Part shown: positions 41,484 to 60,293 of the stretch, one piece after another
Numbering within the stretch: the stretch's first letter is position 1
Layout of the letters: each line of letters begins with the position of its first letter
Virus record (IMG/VR): IMGVR_UViG_3300022848_000005
DNA: 64,000 nt
Reading direction: 5' to 3' (one strand)
From: a virus
Taxonomy: Duplodnaviria; Caudoviricetes
Translations under genes and position numbers: made by a program
Notes under the pieces: generated by a model
Database searches by the model: none
Told to the model about the DNA's origin: nothing
Seen by the model: only the letters and a program-made list of their open reading frames with translations

Positions 41484-42185
41484 ATGAACGATTTTACGAA
41501 ATATAACGCTCTCCTGCTTAAAGCATATCAAAAATATGCAAATACAAGAGACCTTGTTTCAAAAAAACAAGACATAATTAGATCTCTGGTTACAGCACCA
41601 GAGCCTACAATTTTATTTGCTGGATTTAATCCTCTGTGTTTATTAGTAGACAACTTTGGTATTATGGAAGCAGATGAAAGTGTATTAAAGTTTTTAACAG
41701 AGCAAGATAAGACATATACAGAAGTTGATCCCACTAATACTACCCTCTGGGATTATGTTATTGCAACTGACGAATATTATACATTTGCAAAAGATGAACA
41801 GGACCAACAACAAAAAATAAATATATTAAGCGCAATAACAAAGCGTAGTCTAATAACTACTTTGCGTGATTATAAAAACATGAATCACAGAGATAAAGAA
41901 TTTTCAATGCCTATTTCTGTTGTCAATGATACAGATAGAACTATATACTTAGAGTATCATATACATTGTGGAACCAAGCACTGGGACAGTCTAGTATATG
42001 AATTAGATGGTGAAGACAATCAAACACATGGGCCGTACAAGCGTATGCCTATGTATTTTAAACAGTTAGCAAAGTTTAGCATCGACGGAGGTGCTACGTC
42101 CTTTCAGGTACAGAAGAACATGATGTGGAAAGGTCTTATTCGACGAAACTTTGAACATGTAATATCAATAAACTATGATAAATGA
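41484..42185 (+). CDS. Class I SAM-methyltransferase-like fold protein (degenerate)
   Basis: Weak motif similarity only (ILFAGF, WDYVIA.DE). Confidence 0.35.
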   Translation: MNDFTKYNALLLKAYQKYANTRDLVSKKQDIIRSLVTAPEPTILFAGFNPLCLLVDNFGIMEADESVLKFLTEQDKTYTEVDPTNTTLWDYVIATDEYYTFAKDEQDQQQKINILSAITKRSLITTLRDYKNMNHRDKEFSMPISVVNDTDRTIYLEYHIHCGTKHWDSLVYELDGEDNQTHGPYKRMPMYFKQLAKFSIDGGATSFQVQKNMMWKGLIRRNFEHVISINYDK

Positions 42186-43386
42186 AAATGAAATAAATCA
42201 ACTATTAGCCAATGAAATAACCAAAGCAGTAAAACAAAAGATACTTCATAATGAAAATGAAATAGATCTTCTATTGGCCAATGAAGTAGCCAACGTAGTA
42301 AAACAAAAGATGCTTCTATTGGCCAATGAAGTACCCAAAGCAGTAAAACAAAAGTTACTTCAAAATGAAAATGAAATAAACCAACAGTTAGCCAATGAAA
42401 TAACCAAAGCAGTAAAACAAAAGATGCTTCACGTTGACATACCACACCTGGTGTCAGAAGCAACAACACGTGAACTGGCCGACAAAATCACACATATAAA
42501 ATTTCCAGAAGGCAGTATTCCTTTTGACAGCATTAGGAACAACACTGTAACGATATCTGGGAACCAAGTTAATGGTGGTATACACAAAAAATTTAAGTCT
42601 AGAGGCATAGAGGATCATGCTATAAATTGTGAACTTAGTGTCTTAGATGATAACGTAGTAGTAGAGAACACATTAGTTGCACGAAATGCCAACATAAAAG
42701 AAAATTTAATAGTGGATGGTAACTTAATTGTTCACGGAACTATTCCAGCAGACTGTAATTTCTTTATTGACATCGTGGAAGGTGTTATTTGTAGATTAGG
42801 TGAAGAATTTGACAAAGTGTTTAAACAGAGTATAGTTGATGGTGTCTTGTTTACACTTAAGAACCAAGGTATAGACGTTAGCAAAATAAGTCTGAATGGT
42901 AACGTGTTTACAGACGGGACCAGCATTGCTGGTACAGTAACGACTAGCAACTTACAGAAAGTTGGACAACTTAAAGAACTACAAGTAAAAGGTGAATCAC
43001 TCTTAGCAGACACATTGTATGTTACCAAAGGTCGCATCGGAATAAACACAGTCGAACCTAGCGCATCACTGTCAGTCTGGGACGAAGAAACTGAGGTAGT
43101 AATAAAGAAGCATTCTAGACATAAAGCGTATATCGGTAGCTCAAGAGATACCACCGTGGTCTTGGGTGCTAACCGTAACGATAACATAGTACTAAACCAA
43201 GACGGCTCTGCGTCAATAGATAATTTAAAAATAGGCGGTAATAAATTCACAAGCAATCCTATACTGCCCAATGTTGAATCAGTTAAAGGGCATATTGTGT
43301 TTAACAGTCATCCAGACATAGGGAGACCAGTGGGCTGGGTTTGTTTGGGAGGAGATCGTTGGTCATCTTTCGGTAATTGTGAATGA
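42175..43386 (+). CDS. Hypothetical fibre-like protein with N-terminal tandem repeats
   Basis: 23-aa repeats; RIGINT.EP..SL.V and GRPVGWVC motifs seen in phage fibre-type proteins. Confidence 0.55.
   Translation: MINENEINQLLANEITKAVKQKILHNENEIDLLLANEVANVVKQKMLLLANEVPKAVKQKLLQNENEINQQLANEITKAVKQKMLHVDIPHLVSEATTRELADKITHIKFPEGSIPFDSIRNNTVTISGNQVNGGIHKKFKSRGIEDHAINCELSVLDDNVVVENTLVARNANIKENLIVDGNLIVHGTIPADCNFFIDIVEGVICRLGEEFDKVFKQSIVDGVLFTLKNQGIDVSKISLNGNVFTDGTSIAGTVTTSNLQKVGQLKELQVKGESLLADTLYVTKGRIGINTVEPSASLSVWDEETEVVIKKHSRHKAYIGSSRDTTVVLGANRNDNIVLNQDGSASIDNLKIGGNKFTSNPILPNVESVKGHIVFNSHPDIGRPVGWVCLGGDRWSSFGNCE
42181..42431 (+). repeat. In-frame 69-bp tandem repeat (3 near-full units plus 1 truncated)
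   Basis: NENEINQLLANEITKAVKQKILH and variants. Confidence 0.9.
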
Positions 43387-44009
43387 ACTTAACCTTTATT
43401 ATAGGTAACGGTCAAAGTCGAAGTAACATCAGTATAGATAGACTCAGAGACTTTGGTCCAGTCTGGGGGTGTAATAGGATATACAAGGACTGGCATGTAG
43501 ATAACCTTGTTGCTATTGATCAAGCCCAAGTAGAACTTATTCTCAGAGACGAGTACCATACTAAAGCAAACGTCTATACTAGAAAAAGATGGTCACCGTT
43601 GTACAATGGGGTGCCTGGGGTAAATTACATTCCTGAATTTAAAGAAGAAGGAACAAACAAGTGGCAGAAGCAGTGGCATTGGAACTCAGGACCACTTGCC
43701 ATGTTCGTAGCATGTGAGCAAGGCGCAGAAATACTGTGTATGTTTGGATTTGATTTTTACGGTGTTGCTGGCAAGTCCAACAACGTTTACAAGGGATCAC
43801 CAGGCTATGACAAAGCAGATCACAGAGCAGTTGATCCAGGCTTTTGGATACAGCAATTTGTTCAATTAGCTCAATGGTACCCTGATACGCAATTTGTGCA
43901 GGTACAGCCCGCTGGATGGCAAGTACCAGCTGCCTGGCACGGTGTAAGCAATCTGTCGATAGATACCCCTGAAACTTTTTTTGATACCTTAGTAGCAACT
44001 GATGCCTGA
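43383..44009 (+). CDS. MAF/DUF115-like (sugar-transferase-associated) protein
   Basis: IIGNGQSR, GCNRIY.D...D.LVAID, NSG..A and GFDF motifs. Confidence 0.55.
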   Translation: MNLTFIIGNGQSRSNISIDRLRDFGPVWGCNRIYKDWHVDNLVAIDQAQVELILRDEYHTKANVYTRKRWSPLYNGVPGVNYIPEFKEEGTNKWQKQWHWNSGPLAMFVACEQGAEILCMFGFDFYGVAGKSNNVYKGSPGYDKADHRAVDPGFWIQQFVQLAQWYPDTQFVQVQPAGWQVPAAWHGVSNLSIDTPETFFDTLVATDA

Positions 44010-45267: not shown

Positions 45268-45703
45268 AATACAAGTGACACTTGAACCTCACTATAAAAC
45301 TGTGATTCCATATGTGTTTGTTAAGTTAGATGGGGAAGAACGTAGTATGGTATTAAAAGATATAGAAACTGTGACGTTCGACACACTGTTGGACATTGGT
45401 CCACATCAACTAAGCGTATGGTTTGAGAATAAAGAAAACTCAGACAGCACCACAGCAGTAGAGATAAAAGACATTACAATTCAAGGACTTACTCTAAATA
45501 GAGTAAAGTGGGCAGGTAATTATACTCCTCAATATCCTGAACCATGGGCAACAGAACAACATCAACAAGGCAATCCACTGCCTAAAGTTATACCAGGTGG
45601 ACACTTCTTAGGCTGGTTAGGTACATACACACTAGACTTTGAAGTACCCACATTCACTTGGCTACACAAACTAGAAAACTTAGGTTGGCTATACACTGAT
45701 TGA
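45245..45703 (+). CDS. Hypothetical protein
   Basis: 152-aa ORF at the end of the modification cluster. Confidence 0.55.
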   Translation: MDTKYQTEIQVTLEPHYKTVIPYVFVKLDGEERSMVLKDIETVTFDTLLDIGPHQLSVWFENKENSDSTTAVEIKDITIQGLTLNRVKWAGNYTPQYPEPWATEQHQQGNPLPKVIPGGHFLGWLGTYTLDFEVPTFTWLHKLENLGWLYTD

Positions 45704-45735
45704 CATAAGCAGTGAGGTGAGCACATAATAACCGT

Positions 45736-46851
45736 ATGTTTACACAAAATCTAAAACGTATTGGGTTTGCTTGCAAGTACTTGCATCCGGACCAAACACA
45801 ACCCAAAAAGTTACTGGAGGAAATCCAGCGTCCGTTGAATACCAAATCAACAACAGTTGCATGGCTTAATAGGCAAACAAAGGAAGTTGCAGAACAACGA
45901 CTGTGGGATATTATGGTACACAATATACAGTCGTACTATAACCTAATAGAATACGTAGGAGGATTACCCGATGCATTACGAATGGTCAGACTTGGCAGTG
46001 ATTGCCTTCCAGTATATACTCATGATCAATGGTCTTATTACTGGCGGTTACCTGACGTACGTCAGTACTGTGGAACTTATTTGGCAAAAGTCGGTGACTT
46101 GGCTCGTCTTTTGGATGTTAGGCTTAGTATGCACCCTGGCCAGTTTACTGTACTTGCTAGCGATAACCCGGATATTGTTGATCGCAGTATAGAAGAATTT
46201 GAATATCACGCTGACATGATACGGTGGATGGGGTACGGTAAACAGTTTCAAGACTTTAAATGTAATGTACACATTGCAGGCCGCAACGGTCCAGCTGGCA
46301 TCAAAGCATCCCTCAAGCGACTCTCGCAAGAAGCTCGAAACGTAATTACAATCGAAAACGACGAAAACAAATGGGGAATCGCAGACAGCCTCGAACTTGC
46401 AGACGACCTCGCTTTGGTGCTAGATGTACACCATCACCTGTGCCGTGAAAACGAATACATTTTACCAAACGACGATAGATTTAAACGCATAGTAGATTCT
46501 TGGAGAGGGGTACGCCCTGCAATACATTATTCGTATAGTAGAGATACTGCACTATCCGACGGATTTGCACACGACACTGTGCCTGACTTTTCAGCGTTAC
46601 TAGAAGCTGGCCACAAGAAAAGCAAACTACGAGCACATAGTGATTGGTATCCTAATGCAAAGGTAAATGATTATGCACTTGGCTTCCTAGAACATGCAGA
46701 TATTATGGCGGAGGTAAAATATAAAAACCTTGCATCTATTGATTTATACAACTATGCTGTTAAGACTGGAGTCTTTTCTTTGCCCAGTACACCAGCGACG
46801 CTTGACGTCTTTTCTCAAGAGTCGCAGGAGACTGCTTCCGCCCTTTGTTAG
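45736..46851 (+). CDS. uvsE: UV damage endonuclease (UvdE/UVDE, TIM barrel)
   Basis: IGFACK, RLGSD, RLSMHPGQF, ENDE, LDVHHH, HYS, LRAHSD and E.K.KNLA motifs. Confidence 0.93.
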   Translation: MFTQNLKRIGFACKYLHPDQTQPKKLLEEIQRPLNTKSTTVAWLNRQTKEVAEQRLWDIMVHNIQSYYNLIEYVGGLPDALRMVRLGSDCLPVYTHDQWSYYWRLPDVRQYCGTYLAKVGDLARLLDVRLSMHPGQFTVLASDNPDIVDRSIEEFEYHADMIRWMGYGKQFQDFKCNVHIAGRNGPAGIKASLKRLSQEARNVITIENDENKWGIADSLELADDLALVLDVHHHLCRENEYILPNDDRFKRIVDSWRGVRPAIHYSYSRDTALSDGFAHDTVPDFSALLEAGHKKSKLRAHSDWYPNAKVNDYALGFLEHADIMAEVKYKNLASIDLYNYAVKTGVFSLPSTPATLDVFSQESQETASALC

Positions 46852-46891
46852 CGTTACCGTAGTACGAACTTGCTTCTTTTGACAAGAACAT
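46760..46891 (-). CDS. 43-aa basic peptide with NUMOD3-like motif (possible homing-endonuclease remnant)
   Basis: MFLSKEASSYYGNANKGRKQSPATLEKRRQASLVYWAKKRLQS; antisense to the UVDE tail. Confidence 0.4.
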   Translation of the reverse strand: MFLSKEASSYYGNANKGRKQSPATLEKRRQASLVYWAKKRLQS

Positions 46892-47041
46892 ATGTTATGT
46901 GCTATAACTATGTATAATATTTATTTATTGCGGTACAGAATAATGCTGTACTACAGGGTTCTTTTATTACAATAACTATAAGGAGGATACAAACAAAAGG
47001 AAGTTGCAGAACAAGGCACAAACAAATAAGGAGAAAACAAC

Positions 47042-47158
47042 ATGAACAAAGATATGAACTTTGAAAACATGAACATCGAAGAAACAAAGAAAGAAGCAGA
47101 TCAAGGTCATGCCACGGCTAAACAATCTTTAAAAGGAATGCCCGGTGAATTTATATGA
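47042..47158 (+). pseudogene. 38-aa fragment resembling part of a Sel1 repeat
   Basis: KKEADQGHATAKQSL; good AAGGAG RBS. Confidence 0.3.
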
Positions 47159-47182
47159 GATACACAAAACAATGAGGAAAAA

Positions 47183-47461
47183 ATGAATATGTTTAAATAT
47201 CCAGTCACTTTAACGAAAGATGGCGACACCATCTTGGCGACATTTCGGGATGTTCCAGAAGCCATTACTTTTGGTGCTGATAAAGAAGAGGCGTTACTCA
47301 ATGCCGTTGATGCTTTAGAGGCTGGGTTATCTTTTTACGTTGAGGCGAATAAAACTCTACCCGTACCGAGCAAGGTCAAGCGCAACGAGGTGACGGTGTG
47401 CCCATCCGCTTTAGCGTGTGCAAAATTGGGTGTATACCAAGCCATGACTGCGGATAGATAG
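47183..47461 (+). CDS. hicB: HicB-family antitoxin, N-terminal domain only
   Basis: YPVTL...ILATFRDVPEAITFG.DKEEAL.NA.DAL......P.PS; ends soon after KLGVYQAM, with no C-terminal HTH. Confidence 0.85.
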   Translation: MNMFKYPVTLTKDGDTILATFRDVPEAITFGADKEEALLNAVDALEAGLSFYVEANKTLPVPSKVKRNEVTVCPSALACAKLGVYQAMTADR

Positions 47462-47562
47462 CGGTCTGGTGCTCAATACAATTTAAGACCAGGAGAAGCT
47501 AGGGCAATCGAGAAGCACTTAAATACCTAGACTAAAAATTATTAACCTTACTAAGTATTATT

Positions 47563-47874
47563 ATGCAGATATTATACAAAAAAGAACTAGAGCAATTGCT
47601 GGATAAAATTGCTACAGGAAAAACTGACGTTAACCGGCTCCAAGAGGACGAACTAGAGGAGTTGATGGACTACATTCACGAGCGAGCTGAGGAGTTGGAT
47701 GATCCTGACTATGACGAGTTTAAGCAACAGTTACTCCAGTTGTTTGACCTGCTCGGACATGTTATTGATAACAGGATTGAAGCGGAAGATAATGAAAAGT
47801 TTATAGACTCTATACGAGGAAGTATACAAAGAGGCAATTTTTACTTTGAATTGGGCAGTTTTATAGTGCATTAA
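47563..47874 (+). CDS. Highly acidic hypothetical protein
   Basis: About 26 D/E against 11 K/R in 103 aa. Confidence 0.55.
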   Translation: MQILYKKELEQLLDKIATGKTDVNRLQEDELEELMDYIHERAEELDDPDYDEFKQQLLQLFDLLGHVIDNRIEAEDNEKFIDSIRGSIQRGNFYFELGSFIVH

Positions 47875-48060
47875 CTTCCCGATATGGAACAACTCTTAGA
47901 GTCTGGTCACAAAAAACAAAAACTAAGAGCCCACTCATTCACTTTCCGGGTAGGATAGCAGTCTGAGTGGGCTCTTAGTTTTCTAGATAACTTTGACGTC
48001 ATGTGCGAAGCCAAATCAAAGAACTTGGCTAGTGCAAAACTAGCCAAACAAATTGCTTAG
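47875..48060 (+). pseudogene. Second, diverged UVDE C-terminal remnant containing an inverted 26-bp loop
   Basis: LPDMEQLLESGHKKQKLRAHS-[FTFRVG*QS]-EWALSFLDNFDVMCEAKSKNLAS aligns to the C-terminus of 45736..46851. Confidence 0.85.
47919..47982. repeat. Perfect 19-bp inverted repeat with 26-bp spacer
   Basis: aaaactaagagcccactca (47919-47937) and tgagtgggctcttagtttt (47964-47982). Confidence 0.95.
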
Positions 48061-48061
48061 C

Positions 48062-48280
48062 CTAAGACTTTTTAGTAGTTGTCTTCTTTTTTGTTGATGT
48101 GGCCTTCTTCTTAGCAGGCGACTTTTTTGTTGTTGTGGCCTTCTTCTTAGCTGGTGCATTGTCAGCAAGAGGGAACGTTGTTCCCTTAGGGAACGGCCAA
48201 GCGGCTGGTTCTTTAACTTCAGGGTTGTTGTTTCCAAATAACCAGTTAATTAATTTTGACAGCATGTTATCGATCTCCAT
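48062..48280 (-). CDS. Small Lys/Thr-rich (histone H1-like PAKKK repeat) protein
   Basis: PAKKKATTTKKSPAKKKATSTKKK; exact TATAAATA on the - strand at 48296-48303. Confidence 0.65.
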   Translation of the reverse strand: MEIDNMLSKLINWLFGNNNPEVKEPAAWPFPKGTTFPLADNAPAKKKATTTKKSPAKKKATSTKKKTTTKKS

Positions 48281-48310
48281 TGTATAATATACATATATTT
48301 ATATTAGGTA

Positions 48311-48339
48311 TTGACAAACGAACAGAAAGGCCCTATAAT
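48311..48339 (+). promoter_or_regulatory. sigma70-type early promoter
   Basis: TTGACA-N17-TATAAT. Confidence 0.75.
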
Positions 48340-48368
48340 AACACTATTAATAACGATATAGGATTGAT

Positions 48369-48704
48369 ATGAAGCAATTTATTATGATTTTTACTATGTT
48401 GGGTATTACTGGATGTGCGGGCCTAAACACGCACTCTAAGCCAGATATTGAATATGTTAGGAACTTTAAAATAGATTGCAGTCAAGCACATGCGCAGTAC
48501 CAGTATATTGACAGTTTAACACCCACGCATTGGGAAAAACAAAGTGCTAAGATTATTACCTCATCAGTAACTGGTAGTATTGGTGGTGCTATTTCTGGTG
48601 ATCATAGAAACAGGGCACATATTAGTTCTGGAGTATACGAAGCAAACATCAGTATGATTAAACATGATATTAGAAGTCAATGTGGATATAAGGATTATAC
48701 ATGA
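48369..48704 (+). CDS. Predicted lipoprotein
   Basis: Lipobox ITGC. Confidence 0.65.
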   Translation: MKQFIMIFTMLGITGCAGLNTHSKPDIEYVRNFKIDCSQAHAQYQYIDSLTPTHWEKQSAKIITSSVTGSIGGAISGDHRNRAHISSGVYEANISMIKHDIRSQCGYKDYT

Positions 48705-48982
48705 AATATTTCGCAATATTTTCAATGCTGTTTTTAACTGCATGTGGATCTGTATACAAGGCACCATTACATCAGGTTGAGAGAATGTATGTGGACTGTG
48801 CCAATAAGGAACAACAGGAGCGATACCTAGAAAGTTTATTAACGAAACAACATGACGATGGTATTGAATACTGGAACGACTGGTTGTTAAATTTAAACTC
48901 TGAGGAAAGACATCAAGACGAGGCGTTATATCGTAACCGTGTTAGATCATTACTGTGGGAGGTTAGATCAACATGCGGTTAA
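48701..48982 (+). CDS. Predicted lipoprotein
   Basis: Lipobox LTAC; shares ..DC...E.Q..Y..SL with the previous ORF. Confidence 0.65.
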   Translation: MKYFAIFSMLFLTACGSVYKAPLHQVERMYVDCANKEQQERYLESLLTKQHDDGIEYWNDWLLNLNSEERHQDEALYRNRVRSLLWEVRSTCG

Positions 48983-49527
48983 TTACTCTACTATTAATTG
49001 TTCCTGGTTTAGTGTTTGCTGAATGCAGGGTCGTGCAAAACAATCACAGTAACGCAGTAGGCACGATTAATCAGATCAGAAACATACAATCACAAGTACT
49101 GGAGTTTAGAAATAAAACCAGACAGTGCGAAGTTACATTTGAAGGCAACATTGCTAATGGCTGGCACATTGGGTCTGGAGTGTACAAATGGCGTAATGAC
49201 ATGCCAGATGATGTAGCGTGTGGCAATGCATTTGAGCTCGCCAAAGGTAACTTAATTAAAACAGTGGGTAAGATGCAGATTAGTTCTGAGACTTCATTAA
49301 TCTGTGATGAGAGCAACGACCCTGCACTTAAAGTATTAACACCAGGACAAGTTCTCGCATATGGTCAATGGAGACCACATCCCAAAAAGCCACAAGTGTT
49401 TTGGTATCAAGGCACAAGTTGCATGTGGTTTGTGGAAACCAATCTAGCAGGCAACAGTATGCGGCAATGGGAAGGTATTGTATGTGAAGCCAACGACAAC
49501 AACTGGGTTGTGGTTGACAAATTTTAA
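48973..49527 (+). CDS. Secreted Cys-containing hypothetical protein
   Basis: Signal peptide ending VFA; six Cys. Confidence 0.6.
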   Translation: MRLITLLLIVPGLVFAECRVVQNNHSNAVGTINQIRNIQSQVLEFRNKTRQCEVTFEGNIANGWHIGSGVYKWRNDMPDDVACGNAFELAKGNLIKTVGKMQISSETSLICDESNDPALKVLTPGQVLAYGQWRPHPKKPQVFWYQGTSCMWFVETNLAGNSMRQWEGIVCEANDNNWVVVDKF

Positions 49528-54676: not shown

Positions 54677-55853
54677 AACATTCTGTATCCTACCCTGGAC
54701 ACATTTCTTCCATGACCCAACTGGCAGAGTAATGCCATGTTGTAGTGCGCATTGTAAACAGCCAGGCAATCAACAACCTGATTATGGCAACATGAAACAG
54801 TTTACATCGCACACAGATATAATTAATCAACAAAACTTTAATGATCTTAGGTTAAAGATGTTGGCTGGTGAAGAAGCAATAGAATGTCACTATTGTTATG
54901 AGACAGAACGACACGGTGGTGAAAGTTTTAGACAAAGCAAGAATAGCATGCTAGACCAAATGATCACCATGGATGAGATCGAGAACATGACTAATCCAGA
55001 CGGCAGTCTCAACAACTTTACAATGCGTTATTGGGACGTTAGATTTAACAATATATGTAACCTAGCGTGTCGTATGTGCGGTCCAGAATACAGTCATACC
55101 TGGGCAAAAGAACTTCAGATGAAGTTCCCAGACACATACATTGCCAGGGCAAATAAGTCTGACAATTGGCAAGAAATAATGCAAGGATATGGTCCATTAG
55201 ATGATCTATATGAGATATACTTTGCTGGTGGTGAAGTTATGTTCCAGAAAGAACACTGGCAGATGCTGGATCACCTAATAAGCATAGGCAAGACTGATGC
55301 CATGATAATGTATGTAACTAACTTAACCAAGTTAGACTACGACAGCTACAAGTTACTAGATTACCTACCCAAATTTAGAGATGTCACATTCACTGTGAGT
55401 CTAGATGGTACTGGCGACTTGCTGGAATATATTAGATGGGGGGCCAAGTGGGATCAAATAGTTAAGAACATGGATGCAATTAAAGAGTTACCTAACGTGC
55501 ATCTTAGAGTTAACCATGTCACCATGTGGTATAACGTTTTAGCACTGCCTGAGACATTAGACTTCCTATACGGTATGGGATACCTTTCAAACGCCAATCA
55601 TATTGATCTGATGGTAGCCAATGAAGAGGTTAATCACGTGGGAGCCTTGCCTGATGACCTTAAAGCAGAAGCCTGTGAGTCTATACGCTCTAGTAAGTAC
55701 TACCCAATGCTCAAAGACAAGTTAGAAGCAGTTATAAGTGCCATGACAGAAAATAATTTTCCCCTTCCAAAACAACGAGTTACCGCACTCGACAAAAGAC
55801 GTGGCTGTAACGTCTTGAATCATATACCAAAATTATCTAAACATTTTGGTTGA
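54666..55853 (+). CDS. Radical SAM protein with twitch/SPASM-like domain
   Basis: FCILPWTH, C..CY..E, CNLACRMC, FAGGE and SLDG motifs. Confidence 0.9.
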   Translation: MPNKTFCILPWTHFFHDPTGRVMPCCSAHCKQPGNQQPDYGNMKQFTSHTDIINQQNFNDLRLKMLAGEEAIECHYCYETERHGGESFRQSKNSMLDQMITMDEIENMTNPDGSLNNFTMRYWDVRFNNICNLACRMCGPEYSHTWAKELQMKFPDTYIARANKSDNWQEIMQGYGPLDDLYEIYFAGGEVMFQKEHWQMLDHLISIGKTDAMIMYVTNLTKLDYDSYKLLDYLPKFRDVTFTVSLDGTGDLLEYIRWGAKWDQIVKNMDAIKELPNVHLRVNHVTMWYNVLALPETLDFLYGMGYLSNANHIDLMVANEEVNHVGALPDDLKAEACESIRSSKYYPMLKDKLEAVISAMTENNFPLPKQRVTALDKRRGCNVLNHIPKLSKHFG

Positions 55854-55920
55854 CGTTTGGTCCGAGTGAACCTATAATATAGTTATACTGTTAATAAAGA
55901 AGAGGGGAAACAAGATGACT
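55848..55920 (+). repeat. 73-bp promoter-RBS-ATG cassette, copy 1
   Basis: Matches 59512-59584 with 3 mismatches (57 bp identical); contains TTGACG-N17-TATAAT, a GAGGGG RBS and ATGACT. Confidence 0.95.
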
Positions 55921-59511: not shown

Positions 59512-59584
59512 GGTTGACATATGGTCGGAGTGAACCTATAATATAGTTATACTGTTAATAAAGAAGAGGGGAAACAAGATGACT
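59512..59584 (+). repeat. 73-bp promoter-RBS-ATG cassette, copy 2
   Basis: See copy 1 at 55848-55920. Confidence 0.95.
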
Positions 59585-60122: not shown

Positions 60123-60278
60123 ATGTTAGAAAACCCAGGTGCTAACATAATCAAAGTAACAGGTAGCAGTGGTAACACATACGAAGTGGACACTGATAGC
60201 AAGACCTGTAGTTGTCCTGGATTTCAATTCCGTGGTAAATGTAAACATGTATTTAATACATGTTTACATTTACTGTAA
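60123..60278 (+). CDS. Small SWIM zinc-finger protein with rearranged C-terminus
   Basis: Not in the ORF track. [11 protein letters not shown]......[15 protein letters not shown]; paralog of the 54341 domain. Confidence 0.7.
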
Positions 60279-60293
60279 ATGTAAACATGTATT
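60235..60293. repeat. Inverted triplication of a 19-bp unit (A-t-A'-t-A)
   Basis: gtaaatgtaaacatgtatt / aatacatgtttacatttac / gtaaatgtaaacatgtatt. Confidence 0.95.

Follow-up and report, generated by a model that had tools for sequence, protein, structure and literature searches.

The window, by which we mean the whole 64,000-nucleotide stretch of phage DNA analysed here, carries a non-coding remnant of the phage's original UvdE gene in which two hairpin loops very probably underwent historical inversions of the template-switch type. Both inversions are the sole form in the assemblies of the sampled salt-lake population, and they have no coding consequence today. The remnant is separated by a small three-gene cassette from a full-length UvdE gene that is a chimera, and its history can be read against contig L081, which carries a close relative of the gene, and contig L083, which serves as an outgroup. 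The features concerned are the following.

45736-46851, plus strand: full-length UvdE gene, 371 aa, chimeric (PF03851, E 2.6e-38)
46852-47027, no strand assigned: spacer with no supported gene (Pfam negative on both strands), acquired together with the foreign UvdE 3' half
47028-47876, plus strand: 849-bp three-gene cassette (small ORF, HicB-like gene, ORF103)
47183-47461, plus strand: HicB-like gene (phrog_497, E 4e-19; PF15919, E 1e-4)
47563-47874, plus strand: ORF103, stop codon TAA at 47872-47874
47877-48060, plus strand: orphaned UvdE 3' tail, equivalent to L081 UvdE residues ~282-342, stop codon TAG at 48058-48060
47919-47937, plus strand: left arm of hairpin 1, coding for KLRAHS and identical in L081
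47938-47963, plus strand: spacer of hairpin 1, 26 nt, inverted with respect to the ancestral gene, with an in-frame TAG
47964-47982, plus strand: right arm of hairpin 1, coding for EWALSF; outgroup L083 agrees with it at both bases by which L081 departs from it
48025-48047, plus strand: hairpin 2, with 9-bp arms (48025-48033 and 48039-48047) and a 5-nt loop (48034-48038)
48062-48280, minus strand: 72-aa lysine-rich gene from the ORF list, convergent, whose transcript would enter the tail and both hairpins

A perfect inverted repeat in the end of a UvdE gene

Read as a 61-aa peptide with the loop as written, the tail gave 640 matches, and the 120 listed were all UvdE-like, nearly all of them carrying PF03851 in precomputed annotation; with the loop flipped, the read is 63-74% identical to 80 homologues. 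The tail is therefore homologous to the C-terminal part of UvdE but is not a functional enzyme: it has no start codon, the first ~281 codons are absent, and it follows the TAA of ORF103. A preliminary description of this DNA had placed the remnant at 47875-48060 and taken it for a second UvdE copy. The end of that span stands and its start is corrected to 47876/47877, right after the cassette; the remnant is indeed one of UvdE, but not of an independent copy, since the 5' half that once belonged to the tail survives within the intact gene, as its 5' half.

The same description had reported a 26-nt loop between perfect 19-bp inverted repeats, and we find the arms at 47919-47937 (AAAACTAAGAGCCCACTCA) and 47964-47982 to be 100% complementary. 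As written, the plus-strand frame translates as ...GHKKQKLRAHS FTFRVG*QS EWALSFLDNF..., and the TAG contributed by the spacer lies 36 codons ahead of the natural UvdE stop. Flipping the loop alone (47938-47963) yields, as had been claimed, a stop-free frame, KLRAHS-DCYPTRKVN-EWALSF. The further claim that the flip restores the protein did not hold up, since only a start-less tail of 61 codons is regained. By our own arithmetic, a perfect inverted pair of 19 nt at a spacing of at most 120 nt is expected by chance ~3e-5 times per 64 kb. The whole window holds just three perfect 19-nt pairs, two of them in a single palindromic cluster at 60235-60293, where three abutting 19-nt units make up two perfect palindromes (GTAAATGTAAACATGTATT and its complement). 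Another long-loop perfect inverted repeat, with 15-bp arms and a 22-nt spacer, is found at 1237-1288.

The intact copy was said to lack such a repeat, and this is correct: the arm equivalents within 45736-46851 pair at 9 of 19 positions, and the 371-aa protein reads KLRAHSDWYPNAKVNDYALGF at the place equivalent to hairpin 1. Across 80 UvdE loci from IMG/VR, no more than 5-12 of the 19 positions pair in the corresponding segments, so that the repeat is not a by-product of coding constraint, and none of these homologues contains such an inverted repeat. Searches of IMG/VR with the exact arm pattern and with a degenerate DNFDVMCEAK pattern gave no match. A metagenome scan for the inner arms around any loop of 24-28 nt likewise gave neither further relatives nor a flipped form; its sole match, at 112-159 of contig L082, was rejected as a chance occurrence of the inner 12-bp arms in an unrelated terminator-like hairpin. 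That hairpin sits just after an apparent 5S rRNA gene, on a metagenome contig unrelated to the window. The survey of related UvdE genes for the repeat and for both loop orientations, which had been suggested as a check, thus stands at none of 80 in IMG/VR, together with the functional gene of L081, whose arms pair at 17 of 19 positions around a spacer in the coding orientation only. The repeat is accordingly peculiar to the remnant when compared with the intact copy, but not when compared with L081.

Polarity of the inversions

Among the matches listed for the remnant peptide with its loop stop read through, the best was P0001, a 342-aa UvdE encoded on L081, whose C-terminus reads ...FPDMEQLLESGHKKQKLRAHSDCYPNRKVNEWALRFLDNFDIMAECKSKNLASFALAKQIA and whose spacer peptide agrees with the flipped read at 8 of 9 residues. 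In L081 the intact UvdE lies directly upstream of a small minus-strand gene, after which come genes of 111 and 93 aa, and the window has this order on the right-hand side of the remnant. Positions 1-1141 of the contig align with 45403-46544 of the window, and positions 1177-2493 with 47876-49192 at 95.5% identity (blastn). A further, reverse-strand HSP of 64 nt at 95.3% covers exactly hairpin 1, and the spacer region also gives reverse-strand matches to L030 and L021.

In L081 the spacer reads GACTGCTATCCTAACCGGAAAGTGAA and codes for DCYPNRKVN, and the window carries its reverse complement with one substitution, so that agreement rises from 6 of 26 positions as written to 25 of 26 after reverse-complementing. 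The first arm of L081 is identical to that of the window, and the second differs at two adjacent bases, which reduces pairing to 17/19. The spacer of L081 being the reverse complement of the window's, the flipped orientation is the ancestral, coding one. As judged from one close relative (L081) and a few outgroups, then, it is the window that has the inverted spacer and L081 that has kept the ancestral one. Elsewhere in the tail, five of nine bases differ between 48004-48011 of the window and 1305-1312 of L081, giving M-C-E-A in the window and M-A-E-C in L081. M-C-E-A is also found in L083, L085 and L086, and the Cys and Ala codons of L081 seem to have been swapped around GAA; by this comparison the change is derived in L081, and it is not a reverse complement.

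The age of the repeat can be judged from L083 and L084, which represent a more distant phage with the order radical SAM gene, 152-aa gene, UvdE, minus-strand gene, 73-aa gene and 111-aa gene, the 73-aa gene being an extra one between the minus-strand gene and the 111-aa gene. The second arm of L083 is TGAGTGGGCTCTTAGTTTC, and it has CTT AGT (Leu-Ser, as in the family consensus ALSF) in common with the window and not with L081. This agreement places the perfect 19/19 repeat before the inversion, in the working gene of an ancestor, and we infer that the common ancestor of the window tail and L081 probably paired at 19/19. Pre-existing flanking repeats are thus seen for hairpin 1 in the form of arm 1 of L081 and arm 2 of L083. 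Pairing along the sub-lineage runs from 10 of 19 positions in L086 through 13 in L085, 14 in L083 and 17 in L081 to 19 in the window. On these sequences the arms would have been left unaltered by the inversion, with L081 later changing two bases and both flips falling on the window lineage. Two other routes to the perfect repeat were considered. Perfection of arm 2 by a conversion tract during the inversion is ruled out by L083, which shows the arm 2 of the window to be ancestral, and a one-step correction of a serine codon in arm 1 from AGT to TCA is weakened by L085 and L086, which already use TCT.

A second inversion, absent from the preliminary description, is found 60 nt downstream, in hairpin 2. 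Its loop (48034-48038) is GCAAA in the window and TTTGC in L081, an exact reverse complement at 5 of 5 positions. L081, L083, L024 and L086 all read NLASF... where the window reads NLASAK, which marks the loop of the window as the derived state, and L083 has the repeat of hairpin 2 too, in a short version. In both hairpins, therefore, a segment has been replaced by its reverse complement at unchanged length (25/26 in hairpin 1 and 5/5 in hairpin 2).

Over 47876-49192, the alignment with L081 outside the 185-nt tail holds 29 scattered differences in 1,132 bases and no inversion. The two inversions fall within 130 nt, and the remaining ~2.2 kb of the alignment with L081 contain none. This clustering could reflect relaxed constraint or an unusually high rate of flipping at these hairpins.

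Replacement of the resident gene

The full-length gene upstream of the cassette has two origins. Sliding identity to L081 is 97-100% over 45883-46242 and falls to 58-83% thereafter. The first 515 nt (45736-46250) are 95.5% identical to L081, with the next best locus at 84%, and the best matches of the following 600 nt (46251-46851) are other alleles at 79-81%, with which the protein comparison agrees. On the strength of these identities the intact gene is a chimera, with a resident 5' part up to ~46250 and a foreign 3' allele after it. Resident codons ~180-281 were replaced by foreign DNA and codons ~282-342 were stranded. It had been proposed that the rest of the remnant's gene was displaced by the intact allele and a HicB patch; the arrival of foreign DNA that includes the HicB-like patch is upheld, but the supposedly intact gene is itself part resident.

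Several further observations concern this gene. At its start, 45703-45880 is 80-93% identical to L081 as against 98-100% on both sides, and from its identity profile looks like another small mosaic or gene-conversion tract. The chimeric protein is ~29 residues longer than its 342-aa relatives (46763-46851), and for that stretch Pfam gave no support, even at E<=10, for an antisense NUMOD3 homing-endonuclease remnant. UvdE proteins on hundreds of IMG/VR contigs are 72-81% identical to that of the window, and the syntenic genes upstream of UvdE (42175-44009) are only 23-39% identical, a pattern that may mean either that UvdE is far more conserved than its neighbours or that it is often exchanged between these phages. 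Megablast and blastn comparisons of the locus with phage records gave no match. The protein-level UvdE matches fall in jumbo phages, and together with the gene order they point to a jumbo-type phage.

The cassette extends from a ribosome-binding site to two bases beyond a stop codon. It forms a unitig of its own (47028-47876), at ~3x the depth of its neighbours and with other flanks on both sides, and contigs L088 and L089 carry it at ~99% between different, unrelated genes. At the right junction, 47876/47877, where ...TTAACT meets TCCCGAT, a single T is common with the resident sequence. The unitigs to the left (46521-47057) and right (47847-49500) have depths of 27.9 and 28.7 in run X1 and of 4.5 and 4.1 in run X14, and this equality, together with the synteny to L081, speaks for one genome. 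The 72-aa minus-strand gene lies directly behind the intact UvdE in L081 and is also found behind UvdE in L083; its exact protein occurs in 11 contigs. The possibility that ORF103 is a diverged piece of UvdE was ruled out (BLASTP E 4.7). No homing endonuclease or other mobility gene was confirmed beside the cassette, and no recombinase family was found among the scanned ORFs between 42175 and 49527.

The cassette is also present in a more abundant genome, where it is flanked on one side by an Rpb6-like small-gene cluster and on the other by unrelated genes. In contig L087 this other left context is joined to the right context of the window (UvdE tail and minus-strand gene), and the contig may be a true recombinant or else a chimera produced by assembly through the 849-bp common block. 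A ~75-nt element that is repeated in the window (55843-55917 and 59512-59581) also occurs in L087, at 100% identity (284-358), upstream of a small gene.

These comparisons enable us to propose a history for the locus. In this model, the foreign UvdE 3' half, its downstream spacer and the 849-bp cassette would have replaced the middle of the resident gene through a left crossover that was homologous and lay inside UvdE near 46250, and a right junction at 47876/47877 that was illegitimate and would have left the last 61 codons stranded. The ancestral coding sequence would already have held the perfect 19-bp inverted repeat, and in the window lineage the 26-nt spacer and the 5-nt loop of hairpin 2 would each have been inverted in place. 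That template switching was the mechanism, and in which order the tail was orphaned and its loops inverted, is what we infer from the comparative data.

A doubtful but possible alternative to this order is that the inversion of hairpin 1 came first, that its premature stop killed the resident UvdE, and that selection subsequently favoured the foreign allele, which rescued the function. Such a sequence of events would fit the position of the TAG contributed by the inverted spacer, the presence of the perfect repeat in a functional ancestor, and the fact that the replacement left a full-length, Pfam-complete UvdE. However, neither the protein search nor the metagenome scan found a full-length gene with the inverted spacer, the cassette resembles a commonplace mobile patch of genes, found in other places too, and decay after orphaning would account just as well for the two inversions and for the N-to-T and I-to-V changes of the tail.

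A possible role in termination

A second alternative, which concerns why the hairpins persist and is compatible with hairpin-loop inversion as the account of how the inversions arose, is that they have been kept as terminators between the convergent ORF103 on the plus strand and the 72-aa gene on the minus strand, the tail having become exapted regulatory DNA in which loop orientation is irrelevant. We regard this as unlikely, and a terminator role, conceivable on sequence features, is nonetheless suggested by several observations. Read on the minus strand, hairpin 2 is classed as terminator-like, and on that strand hairpin 1 is followed by TTTTTGTTTTTT (47918-47904), a T5GT6 run. Both strands fold stably, with predicted energies of -41 and -43.5 kcal/mol and z-scores of -5.6 and -7.2. 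In both the window and L081, only 1-2 nt separate the end of the minus-strand gene from the UvdE stop, which leaves the 3' end of UvdE as the only place for a terminator, and the short hairpin 2 repeat is present in L083. Terminator loops usually measure 3-8 nt, and a 26-nt loop is far beyond this size; moreover, the T-tract on the plus strand is weak, and the repeat is missing from most of the family. Retention of the tail would need no selection if the junction is recent, and the flanks are ~97% identical to L081. Rfam returned only far sub-threshold matches to generic miRNA hairpins (33 bits, against a gathering score of 93).

A single orientation in the salt-lake population

DNA near-identical to the window was found, as contigs, in 24 salt-lake metagenome runs. 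Scored in contigs, which drop rare variants and from which low-frequency flips would escape, a single orientation of both loops is present in eight assemblies, comprising six metagenome contigs (L087, L090 and L095-L098, derived from JGI, ENA k141 and Logan assemblies) and the Logan contigs of runs X1 and X14. From 47847 onward, the contigs of these two runs match the window without a single difference and run unbroken through the hairpin, and the loop orientation is common to two haplotypes distinguished by 10 cassette sites. A joint from 46437 to 47909 in run X19, considered as a variant of the locus, was taken instead as a divergent UvdE homologue of another phage, its shorter side measuring 21 nt.

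This distribution bears on whether flipping is, or ever was, frequent. In the 185-nt tail, the comparison with L081 gives two flips as against about ten substitutions. A speculative reading would be that loop flips in long-armed hairpins of phage coding sequence are roughly as frequent as point substitutions, and that in the full-length ancestral allele the 26-nt flip acted as a recombinase-free, heritable toggle turning UV repair off and possibly on, or else that the repeat arose and was kept within the coding sequence as an antisense terminator of the convergent gene; we consider this improbable.

Still less probable is that the hairpin is a reversible, recombinase-free ON/OFF switch, with a loop that flips often and so toggles the in-frame stop. 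The preliminary description had offered a hairpin-mediated micro-inversion, either as a one-off event or as such a switch. L081 and L083 uphold the historical inversion, and the switch is not borne out by the eight assemblies, where the as-written orientation alone is present in the contigs. The geometry would be right, with perfect 19-bp arms and a TAG in frame in one orientation; hairpins of this kind would seem to flip easily, given two loop flips within 130 nt, and before the gene was broken up a flip would have left the ancestor with a truncated enzyme. However, there is nothing to toggle in the window, where the tail lies behind the stop of ORF103 without a start and without most of its codons. 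The unitigs are unbroken at the hairpin, and neither L081, with its coding orientation only, nor the IMG/VR homologues, with no such repeat, lend support to flipping. Of what characterises an inverton, coexisting orientations were not seen in the contigs of the eight assemblies, and no functional gene or promoter is under the control of the loop.

That the inverted loop is an assembly artefact of the inverted repeat can be dismissed, since De Bruijn assemblers cannot orient a loop if its arms are at least k long but the arms here are 19 bp against k=31 for Logan and ENA contigs named k141, the arms of hairpin 2 are only 9 bp, and JGI, ENA and Logan assemblies agree exactly.

Discussion

The mutation that best accounts for these observations is an inversion in place by template switching. 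A replicating strand would switch to the opposite strand within one arm, copy the loop backwards and return in the other arm and, with a perfect repeat, this would leave no footprint in the arms. For hairpin 1, recombination between the arms would yield the same product as template switching, which is thus only the likely mechanism of that event. Arms of 9 bp, such as those of hairpin 2, are too short for homologous recombination. Template switching is therefore favoured, and it would be an economical explanation of both events.

Mutations of this kind have precedents. Ripley reportedly put forward the quasipalindrome model, and small hairpin-associated inversions in chloroplast non-coding DNA are said to have been described by Kelchner and Wendel in 1996 and by Kim and Lee in 2005. 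Inversion of a spacer or loop by inter-strand template switching at perfect hairpins, with no footprint in the stem, is documented (Loytynoja and Goldman 2017, PMC5453318; Monttinen and Loytynoja 2022, PMC8794818), and plastomes abound in hairpin-associated inversions of 4-50 bp (reviewed in PMC12371153). The window resembles the short template-switch mutations of the former reports (PMC5453318, PMC8794818) in that a segment has become its exact reverse complement with its length kept and its arms without footprint, a pattern that occurs here twice, once with 19-bp arms and a 26-nt loop and once with 9-bp arms and a 5-nt loop. It differs from them in concerning a phage gene remnant rather than rRNA, miRNA or primate DNA, in having a 26-nt loop where rRNA loops of 4-8 nt were reported, and in the location of the repeat within protein-coding sequence, with arms that code for conserved residues. 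With the chloroplast inversions it has in common the size range of 4-50 bp and the short hairpin-forming inverted repeats near gene 3' ends. The chloroplast cases, however, are plastid intergenic hairpins and are often recurrent, whereas the window is known from a single orientation.

Like phase-variable invertons of the Hin, Gin and Fim type, the segment is bracketed by inverted repeats and its orientation alters the reading. Typical invertons are hundreds of base pairs long and carry promoters. Unlike them, the window has no invertase among the neighbours examined, shows one and the same orientation in every assembly, and has a gene fragment as the affected frame. The surrounding locus is reminiscent of mosaic allele replacement and moron-type cassette gain in phage genomes, with a cassette that is bounded at gene edges and ~99% common to different contexts, a conserved gene within which homologous crossover took place, and the end of a gene left orphaned, but differs from these systems in that no mobility gene was confirmed beside the cassette.

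Taken together, our results place a mutation of a known type in a new, tidy setting. They reveal no new regulatory mechanism. The locus provides a clean natural case in a phage of in-place hairpin-loop inversion, polarised by a relative and an outgroup, with two independent events in one tail, preserved beside the recombination scar of a repair gene half-replaced by a foreign allele and a small cassette. Template switches make multi-nucleotide mutation clusters, and an ordinary alignment would here count 20 substitutions where a single event may have occurred. The locus also illustrates that functional coding sequence can hold perfect repeats, and that pseudogene tails can pass for second gene copies.
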